Sequence record: PZ195121.1
Source: a phage
DNA: 3,361 nt
Direction: 5' to 3' (one strand)
The position numbers and the translations under genes were made by a program. Shown piece by piece: positions 52 to 1,824 of this stretch (position 1 is its first letter; every line of letters starts with the position of its first letter). The notes beneath the pieces were generated by a model. That model did not search any database. It saw nothing but the letters and a program-made list of their open reading frames with translations, and was not told the origin of the DNA.

Positions 52-1224
52 ATGTTTCCGAAGTCAAATATCGATAGAAATTACAAGGTCAAACTTATCT
101 CTTACGACAAGAAAGGGAACCTTGTTTCCGACGACTCTTTCGAGCAAGTCGAAAACTATCTCTTTCAAAATCGTTCGAGTACGTATAAACCTGGTTATAT
201 CCGTCGCGACTTTCGAAGACCGACTAACTTTTGGAACGGCTTTCGCTGTTTCAACCAGCCAGTTGGTACCTTCACTCGGAAACTCTCTGATGGTGGGAGA
301 CAAGTTGCTGATTACGGCATTGTGAACCCTAATAAGTTCACTGCCAACAGTCAGCACTTGGGGGACAACATGGTAATTTACCCTGGTCCTTTCTCTATAA
401 ATATTGATCAGCGTGCTTCTGTCGAAGTCCTCAATAAGCTTTCACAATCGAACCTCAATATTGGGGTTGCAATTGCTGAAGCTAAGATGACTGCGTCATT
501 ACTCGCTAAACAATCTATAGCTCTCATCAGAGCCTACACTGCTGCAAAGCGCGGTAATTGGCGAGAGGTGTTTTCTCAACTCCTCATCTCCGAACACCGT
601 TTCAGAGCTCCTGCTAAGGATCTCGGAGGTCGATGGCTCGAACTGCAGTACGGTTGGTTACCCCTTATGAGCGATTTGAAAGCTGCATATGATTTGCTGA
701 CGCAAACCAAACTGCCTGCTTTCATGCCCTTGAGGGTCACCCGCACCGTTGGCGGAACGCACAGTTATAAAGTGCGCAACGTCGAATCTGCAGGGGATAC
801 TTGGTCCTATAGCGATCGTTTGTCGGTGAATTACCGAATATGGTATTTCATTTCCGATCCACGTCTCGCATGGGCTAGTTCCCTCGGGCTTCTTAACCCT
901 TTAGAAATTTATTGGGAAAAGACGCCTTGGTCGTTCGTTGTTGACTGGTTCTTACCTGTCGGTAATCTTATAGAAGCCATGAGTAATCCTCTTGGCCTCG
1001 ACATTATTTCCGGCACGAAGACCTGGCAACTTGAATCAAAACTCAATGCAACGCTTCTGGCTCCGGGCTGGTCTGGAACTGCAAAGTTGTCTGCATACGC
1101 GAAAGCATATGACAGATCTACTTTCTATTCCTTTCCCACCCCTTTGCCTTACGTGAAATCTCCACTTAGTGGTCTTCACTTAGCGAATGCATTGGCCTTA
1201 ATCAACCAACGCCTGAAAAGGTAA
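52..1224 (+). CDS. mat: Maturation protein (A protein; pilus-binding, RNA-attached virion protein)
   Basis: 390-aa ORF ending TAA (1222-1224). It is the first gene, directly upstream of an unmistakable levivirus coat gene, and the size matches group I/II levivirus A proteins (about 390 aa). RBS GGAGGA upstream. Function assigned by position, size and family context, not by a recognised motif. Confidence 0.88.
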
Positions 1225-1240: not shown

Positions 1241-1633
1241 ATGGCAACTTTACGCAGTTTTGTACTCGTCGATAATGGCGGTACGGGGAATGTTACTGTC
1301 GTTCCTGTTAGCAATGCCAACGGCGTCGCTGAGTGGCTTTCTAATAACTCGCGCAGTCAAGCTTATCGCGTGACTGCCAGTTATCGTGCGTCAGGCGCGG
1401 ACAAGCGCAAATACACCATCAAACTTGAAGTGCCGAAGATCGTCACTCAAGTTGTAAACGGTGTTGAGCTGCCTGTTTCCGCATGGAAGGCTTACGCCTC
1501 TATTGACCTGACCATCCCTATCTTTGCTGCAACCGACGATGTGACCGTTATTTCCAAGTCACTCGCTGGTCTGTTCAAAGTTGGGAACCCTATCGCTGAC
1601 GCCATCTCTTCTCAGAGTGGCTTCTACGCATAA
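1241..1633 (+). CDS. cp: Coat (capsid) protein, levivirus group II (GA-like)
   Basis: 130-aa ORF, MATLRSFVLVDNGGTGNVTVVPVSNANGVAEWLSNNSRSQAYRVTASYRASGADKRKY...TIPIFAATDD...GNPIADAISSQSGFYA. Shows the conserved levivirus coat signature (FVLVDNGGTG, NGVAEWLS.NSRSQAY, ELTIPIF-like, GNPI) and is near-identical to my recollection of the phage GA coat protein. Single TAA stop with a second stop 2 codons downstream, so no read-through extension. Confidence 0.95.
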   Translation: MATLRSFVLVDNGGTGNVTVVPVSNANGVAEWLSNNSRSQAYRVTASYRASGADKRKYTIKLEVPKIVTQVVNGVELPVSAWKAYASIDLTIPIFAATDDVTVISKSLAGLFKVGNPIADAISSQSGFYA

Positions 1634-1824
1634 TGGGTCTGAAAGCAAAACATAAGGAAAACCTATGTTCCGATTCACAGAGGTCGAAAAGACTCTATGT
1701 ATGGATCGCACTCGCGATTGTGCTGTCCGATTTCACGTCTATCTTCAGTCATTGGATTTGGGGTCTTCTGATCCTCATTCTCCAGACTTTGATGGACTTG
1801 CCTACCTTCGTGATGAATGTTTAA
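1633..1824 (+). CDS. lys: Lysis protein (L-type single-gene lysis protein), overlapping coat stop and replicase start in a third frame
   Basis: 63-aa ORF whose ATG overlaps the coat stop (UAAUG at 1631-1635). Basic N-terminal region (KAKHKENL...RSKR) followed by a hydrophobic helix-like segment (LYVWIALAIVLSDFTSIFSHWIWGLLILILQTL) that contains an LS dipeptide, as in MS2 L. Position and size match the known lysis gene of group II leviviruses. Confidence 0.8.
   Translation: MGLKAKHKENLCSDSQRSKRLYVWIALAIVLSDFTSIFSHWIWGLLILILQTLMDLPTFVMNV
1649..1669 (+). promoter_or_regulatory. Coat-protein-binding translational operator hairpin at the replicase start (also the likely packaging signal)
   Basis: AACAUAAGGAAAACCUAUGUU folds as stem 1649-1653/1665-1669, bulged A1654, stem 1655-1657/1662-1664, tetraloop AAAA 1658-1661. 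The replicase AUG (1665-1667) is in the 3' arm and the SD (AGGA, 1655-1658) is in the stem/loop. Architecture matches the MS2/GA operator (bulged purine plus 4-nt A-rich loop). Confidence 0.85.

Follow-up and report, generated by a model that had tools for sequence, protein, structure and literature searches.

The closest described counterparts of the element analysed here are the hairpins of about 20 nt at the replicase start that bind the coat protein and repress the replicase once coat protein has accumulated (PMC3561173). As summarised in that source, the loop adenine four bases 5' of the AUG and an unpaired purine are critical in MS2, in GA (Gott et al. 1991) and in PRR1. In the other conjugative-pilus RNA phages PRR1, C-1, Hgal1 and M, and in Qbeta and PP7, a coat-binding hairpin at the start of the replicase has an unpaired purine in its stem and an adenine that is critical in its loop (PMC3561173); these operators have other loop sizes, bulge positions and sequences as well as their own coat proteins, and they are set apart from the present locus on their published descriptions. 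For GA, the annotation of record X03869 marks positions 1733-1753 as 'pot. stem loop structure; pot. binding site coat protein', and binding of the GA coat protein to a sequence identical to the one considered here is attributed to Gott, Wilhelm and Uhlenbeck 1991, as cited in PMC3561173. A full-text literature search on the GA coat protein and the operator sequence found no paper detailing the GA operator.

The window, by which we mean the whole stretch of 3,361 nt that was analysed, matched group II F-specific RNA coliphages throughout when compared with the phage collection by megablast, with full-length identities of 95.9% to Escherichia phage BZ13 strain DL20 and 94.4% to GA (X03869/NC_001426), and identities of 94.9% to DL10 and approximately 85% to BZ13 T72 and KU1. 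All of them belong to the species Emesvirus japonicum, and this sequence comparison identifies the window as the almost complete genome of an F-specific RNA coliphage of group II in that species. The order of the open reading frames was maturation, coat, lysis and replicase, which is the standard levivirus layout (Table 1). The two ends of the window (1 and 3361) corresponded to positions 87-3446 of the 3466 nt of GA and to 78-3438 of the 3458 nt of DL20; relative to a complete genome, the window is short of ~77-86 nt at its 5' end and of 20 nt at its 3' end. A separate hairpin at 42-60, CGGAGGAUCUAUGUUUCCG, covers the Shine-Dalgarno sequence (GGAGG) and the AUG (52) of the maturation gene; the same scan found it in GA, DL20 and DL10 and did not detect it in T72 or KU1.

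Table 1. Features of the window and operator sequences of Emesvirus relatives; coordinates are those of the window unless a relative is named.
Feature	Coordinates	Strand	Operator sequence	Basis or remark
Maturation gene	52-1224			ORF list
Coat protein gene	1241..1633	+		ORF list; product would act in trans as repressor, binding the hairpin as a dimer
Lysis ORF, 63 aa	1633..1824	+		Whole hairpin lies inside, in another reading frame; lysis CDS in GA and BZ13 records
Replicase beta-subunit ORF, 532 aa	1665..3263	+		Length and position as in the GA replicase CDS
Operator hairpin, 8 Watson-Crick bp, one unpaired A, AAAA loop	1649..1669	+		Sequence and folds; annotated GA site identical
Conserved 19-nt core, -15 to +4 from the A of the AUG	1650..1668	+		Homologous to MS2 operator; 5 bp, bulged A, 2 bp, 4-nt loop
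Replicase Shine-Dalgarno, UAAGGA	1653..1658	+		Six bases 5' of the AUG; read from sequence
AA doublet, one A unpaired	1654..1655	+		Bulged A of MS2 corresponds to 1655 (-10)
AAAA tetraloop, -7 to -4	1658..1661	+		A-7 and A-4 invariant in relatives; -6 and -5 vary
GA group and L018 operator			ACAUA-A-GG-AAAA-CC-UAUGU	
MS2, L021, L030 operator			ACAUG-A-GG-AUUA-CC-CAUGU	
AVE017 operator			ACGUG-A-GG-AAAA-CC-CAUGU	
L017 operator			ACAUG-A-GG-AAUA-CC-CAUGU	
L020 operator			ACAUG-A-GG-AAAA-CC-CAUGU	
L012-14, L022, L031-34 operator			CAUG-A-GU-AUAA-AC-CAUG	
L019 operator	~1002-1021		ACAUG-A-GUAAAAUAC-CAUGU	Length variant

A preliminary description of this locus, made from the sequence, had proposed a hairpin with an AAAA tetraloop at 1649-1669, and the folding analysis bore this out. 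The segment reads AACAUAAGGAAAACCUAUGUU, and ViennaRNA folded the 21-mer into the 8-bp structure ((((((.((....)))))))) with a minimum free energy (MFE) of -4.2 kcal/mol. Its z-score was -2.43 and equally good folds were obtained for 5 of 200 shuffles, so that the isolated hairpin is predicted to be only marginally more stable than shuffled sequence. The expectation that it would also form in its genomic context held: it was both the MFE and the centroid structure in 41-, 81- and 141-nt contexts, it was kept in the partition-function folds of 500- and 800-nt segments by which long-range context was tested, and it was thus the MFE structure throughout the range of 21 to 800 nt. In the two longest contexts the pairs of the core stem had probabilities of 0.94-0.998, the pair of U1664 excepted, for which the probability is split between A1654 and A1655, and the outermost pair (1649-1669) had a probability of 0.78-0.88.

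It had also been proposed that the hairpin encloses both the ribosome-binding site and the start codon of the replicase, and both do lie inside it: the Shine-Dalgarno sequence, which is complementary to the 3' end of 16S rRNA, occupies the 5' arm plus the first loop base, and the AUG at 1665-1667 lies within the 3' arm. Because the hairpin is weak alone (-4.2 kcal/mol, and -3.3 kcal/mol for the 19-mer), the modelled energies suggest that sequestration of these two elements must come mainly from bound coat protein and less from the RNA structure itself. When the window was scanned for a strict operator signature, defined as 5 bp, an unpaired A, 2 bp and an ANNA loop, a single site was found, at 1650, against an average of 0.055 expected from dinucleotide shuffles of the whole window, and the scan returned no second hairpin of operator type. 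Since this one site sits exactly on the replicase AUG, a chance origin is negligible. The existence of the hairpin at 1649-1669 was therefore confirmed, with a correction to the register of the bulge that is taken up below.

The hairpin proved identical in 21 of 21 bases to the replicase operator of GA (X03869; annotation of Inokuchi et al. 1986), which upheld the earlier assignment to the GA type on the grounds of an AAAA loop in place of the AUUA of MS2. With an offset of 84 between the two sequences (replicase start at 1749 in GA and 1665 in the window), the annotated GA feature falls exactly on 1649-1669, and GA has the same placement of the replicase AUG and the same arrangement of coat, lysis and replicase genes. 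The surrounding genomes differ by ~5.6% and the hairpins not at all; between 1615 and 1700 the nearest differences in the flanks were A1630 and C1678, where GA has G, and G1683, where it has A.

The same 21-mer was invariant in all six group II genomes, KU1 and T72 included, and was found unchanged in six further environmental contigs. In the whole-genome alignment of group II, in which 22% of the columns vary, it lies within an invariant run of 37 nt (1641-1677) that is the seventh longest, and invariant runs of 42-89 nt occur elsewhere in the genome; the invariance of the hairpin in this alignment is suggestive, yet not unique to the region, and the lysis and replicase frames that overlap there may contribute to it. 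With no variation among the hairpins of the group II genomes, that group gave no covariation signal. In KU1 and T72, a 3-nt insertion (TTT or ATT) is present between 1647 and 1648, directly 5' of the unchanged hairpin. On the strength of the sequence identity, we concluded that the hairpin is the already described GA-type replicase operator and nothing new. In its probable mode of action and its structural class it goes with the MS2 operator, but two features specific to MS2 are lacking, namely a pyrimidine at -5 and a score at the Rfam gathering threshold, and it is best filed as GA-type.

The comparison with MS2 makes both points. The only Rfam match in the window, obtained at a relaxed threshold, was to RF02359, 'Bacteriophage MS2 operator hairpin', at 1648-1668; it covered model positions 16-36 of 36, which is the entire hairpin part, and aligned with it base for base, so that the comparison with published operators suggested in the preliminary description gave agreement for MS2 in alignment and for GA in full identity. 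The score of 18.1 bits (E 0.49) was far below the gathering score of 40 because the upstream, MS2-specific half of the model was unmatched, and we drew on this sub-threshold match for its alignment without treating it as proof that the site belongs to the family. The MS2/R17 operator (TR) and the window site have a common architecture and register: 5 bp lie below the bulged A at -10 and 2 bp above it, the loop has four bases, of which -7 and -4 are A, and the AUG falls within the 3' arm. The window has a hairpin spanning the Shine-Dalgarno sequence and the AUG, a stem of seven pairs with an unpaired A two pairs below the loop (in the A1655 register), and a loop of four bases in which the A at -7 and the A at -4 are invariant across seven operator types.

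The site also differs from that of MS2. The MS2 loop is AUUA, whereas that of the window is AAAA, with A at both -6 and -5; the MS2/R17 coat protein specifically prefers a pyrimidine at -5, and the corresponding base in the window (1660) is A. The pair under the bulge is G-C in MS2 and A-U in the window, the window has an extra A-U pair at the base of the stem, and the energies of the respective 19-mers were -3.3 kcal/mol for the window and -5.3 kcal/mol for MS2. Because an A-U pair stands under the bulge instead of the G-C of MS2, the position of the bulge becomes ambiguous and the stem is approximately 2 kcal/mol weaker.

This ambiguity bears on an element of the preliminary description that had to be amended, a single bulged A at 1654. 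A single unpaired A is indeed present, but U1664 can pair with either A1654 or A1655, the two registers have exactly the same energy of -4.2 kcal/mol, and they share the ensemble at 0.51 to 0.48. ViennaRNA, the Rfam alignment and the relatives all placed the unpaired A at 1655 (-10). Covariation is seen at 1654-1664, where G-C gives way to A-U and seven of seven operator sequences are paired; the register with A1654 unpaired, which is possible in this sequence, pairs in only two of seven relatives and was rejected as the homologous one. On the sequence comparison, then, the bulge is degenerate here, at 1654 or 1655, and the homologous register is 1655.

As group II offered no variation, we gathered relatives via the coat protein from viral and metagenome contigs and took AVE017 and MS2 from the phage collection. 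Wherever the junction between coat and replicase genes was intact, the lineage had a hairpin of the same shape on its replicase AUG, with loops of AUUA in MS2, AAAA in the GA group, AVE017, L018 and L020, AAUA in L017 and AUAA in L014. Across the eight pairs of seven distinct Emesvirus operators, 89% of the cells were paired and three pairs were changed on both sides, while the seven core pairs (alignment columns 2-20 to 9-14) were paired in 48 of 49 cells, with two of them changing on both sides. Two of the three pairs changed on both sides are the one under the bulge, from G-C to A-U, and the one that closes the loop, from G-C to U-A. The observed covariation score was reached by none of 500 shuffles and slid registers were only 14-62% paired, on a small set of seven distinct tetraloop sequences from which the structure itself had been derived; we therefore regard the covariation as supporting evidence and not as independent proof. 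The outermost pair, 1649-1669, was formed in two of the seven sequences, such that the conserved unit is 1650-1668 and the outermost pair is, as far as these sequences go, lineage-specific. The unpaired A, A-7 and A-4 were invariant across the relatives in the operator alignment, and positions -6 and -5 were variable.

Several of the relatives merit separate mention. In L019, which is uncultured and whose coat protein is 71% identical, an additional base above the bulge allows two readings, one of 2 bp and a 5-nt loop and one of 3 bp and a 3-nt loop; L024 has the same motif as L019 but breaks off within the hairpin and gave no usable operator. The exact GA-type 20-mer was found at 1014-1033 of L018, the coat protein of which is 73% identical, and L017, with a coat protein 74% identical, has an MS2-like stem with an AAUA loop at 1018-1036. 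In this set of sequences, the type of operator does not simply follow the distance between coat proteins. Two further contigs, L023 and L025, were rejected as sources of operators, since the coat match is truncated in each and the operator is absent; in L023 (860-1100) the coat match extends only to residue 98, beyond which the sequence is unrelated, rich in C and A and without an operator, and this metagenome contig is possibly a chimeric assembly.

The window also encodes the expected protein partner. Its coat protein matched the GA capsid structure (PDB 1GAV) with 266 bits and was 61% identical to that of MS2, and its numbering with the initiator Met equals the mature numbering of MS2. For the RNA contacts we used the residues V29, K43, T45, S47, R49, N55, K57, T59, K61, Y85 and N87, which we take to be those seen in the MS2 complex structures. 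Of these, V29, T45, S47, R49, K57, T59, K61 and Y85 are conserved between the window and MS2, and the substitutions relative to MS2 are K43 to R, N55 to K and N87 to S. Across nine Emesvirus coat proteins, Asn87 occurred only with U at -5 (MS2, L021), and operators with A at -5 always went with a Ser87 or Asp87 coat protein; Ser87 also accompanied U at -5, in L017. Lim, Spingola and Peabody are said to have found in 1994 that Ser87 relaxes discrimination at -5, and the pattern of residue 87 and the -5 base fits such relaxed discrimination. N87 and E89 govern the RNA-binding specificity of MS2 (bioRxiv paper). At the position of MS2 Tyr85, the residue is Thr in AVE017, L017, L018 and L019 and Ile in L014.

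Because the site is base for base that of GA and the coat protein is of GA type, we consider it very probable that the function of the hairpin is translational repression of the replicase by a coat-protein dimer, and we infer both binding and repression in this phage from the published work on GA and MS2. The proposed mechanism is that a small hairpin, with the replicase Shine-Dalgarno sequence in the 5' arm and the start codon in the other, would be bound late in infection by a dimer of the accumulated coat protein. By analogy to MS2, the dimer would recognise three adenines, the unpaired one at -10 and those at -7 and -4 of the loop. Its binding would block access of ribosomes to the replicase start and so turn replicase synthesis off. 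The complex of operator and coat protein would probably also provide one high-affinity contact that helps to start capsid assembly on the phage RNA, a packaging role that we infer for this hairpin from MS2 and R17 only.

That last step is where a different reading has an appreciable, if clearly minority, chance of being correct: the hairpin may be a translational repressor only, with packaging specificity arising from many dispersed coat contacts together with the maturation protein, in which case the term 'encapsidation signal' would be an overstatement. As the strict operator signature occurred in no other hairpin of the window, the scan is uninformative on packaging. MS2 genetics by Peabody in 1997 reportedly indicated that encapsidation tolerates loss of the operator interaction, which counts for the repressor-only reading. 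Against it stands the MS2 operator, which is the highest-affinity coat site, triggers assembly in vitro and is bound by a dimer in asymmetric cryo-EM maps. A role of the operator hairpin in starting specific encapsidation only 'has been suggested', for R17 (PMC3561173); packaging signals, which again count against the repressor-only reading, have been modelled for GA too (Dykeman et al. 2013, cited in PMC4368512). In the literature retrieved, no GA-specific evidence for a packaging role was found beyond that modelling paper, as represented by its citation in PMC4368512.

Within the preferred reading, in which the hairpin is a coat-binding repressor site, we also considered whether the 'sliding bulge', with the unpaired A at -10 or -11, is a functional adaptation and not a neutral variant, giving a different repression threshold or different binding kinetics with a Ser87 coat protein of relaxed specificity. 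We think this unlikely.

The elements that surround the hairpin introduce a further alternative. In the 800-nt fold, a long-range helix of 6 bp was predicted between GAAAGC at 1641-1646, three bases 5' of the operator hairpin, and GCUUUC at 1336-1341 in coat codons 32-34, the coat position of the Min Jou long-range interaction, through which translation of the MS2 replicase is coupled to that of the coat. Equivalents were seen with RNAduplex in KU1 (AGAAAGC/GCUUUCU), L020 (GAAAUCCA/UGGAUUUC) and L018 (CACUUAG/CUGAGUG); in these searches of the coat gene against the region 5' of the operator, the global duplexes were cluttered and only short core helices were read. Both partners of the long-range helix lie within invariant runs of the group II alignment. 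The hairpin could be viewed as no more than local mRNA structure, adjusting the initiation of the replicase or its coupling to coat translation without specific coat binding, given that its weak stem (-4.2 kcal/mol) alone masks the Shine-Dalgarno sequence and the AUG, and that the predicted upstream pairing of 1641-1646 with 1336-1341 could, by analogy to MS2, control access without the coat protein. We regard this as very improbable: the pairs of the stem covary around an unpaired A, an A-7 and an A-4 that are the same in all relatives, which is the pattern of protein recognition and unlike that of a plain stem, the coat protein keeps its RNA-contact residues, and the GA coat protein binds the identical sequence according to Gott et al. 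1991, as cited in PMC3561173. Still less credible is conservation imposed by the overlapping lysis and replicase frames with an incidental hairpin shape, for, while the whole hairpin lies within the lysis ORF (1633-1824) and from 1665 also within replicase coding sequence, and while the genome has further invariant runs of 42-89 nt, relatives that differ in sequence keep the pairing by compensatory changes, and a signature with a chance expectation of 0.055 per genome is found on the replicase AUG of all lineages examined.

Two observations concern the lysis gene in the same region. The coat stop and the lysis start overlap as UAAUG at 1631-1635, and in GA the coat-lysis junction drives translation of the lysis gene by termination-reinitiation (PMC9955659); in KU1 and T72 the lysis start lies 18 nt past the coat stop. 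A hairpin was predicted at 1599-1623 in the 141-nt fold, matching the lysis-control stem-loop of GA, where X03869 annotates 1683-1707, equivalent to window 1599-1623, as 'pot. stem loop structure; pot. function in lysis gene control'.

Taken as a coat-binding repressor site, the hairpin means that the window carries the canonical regulatory switch of the GA/BZ13 type, unchanged from the 1986 reference, and it is of little importance beyond correct annotation. The comparative set, with its four tetraloop types, one length variant, two covarying stem pairs and a residue 87 that tracks the -5 base, may help designers of orthogonal coat-protein/hairpin tags. If the sliding bulge should be adaptive after all, relatives of the L019 type may mark further co-evolved specificities of operator and coat protein.
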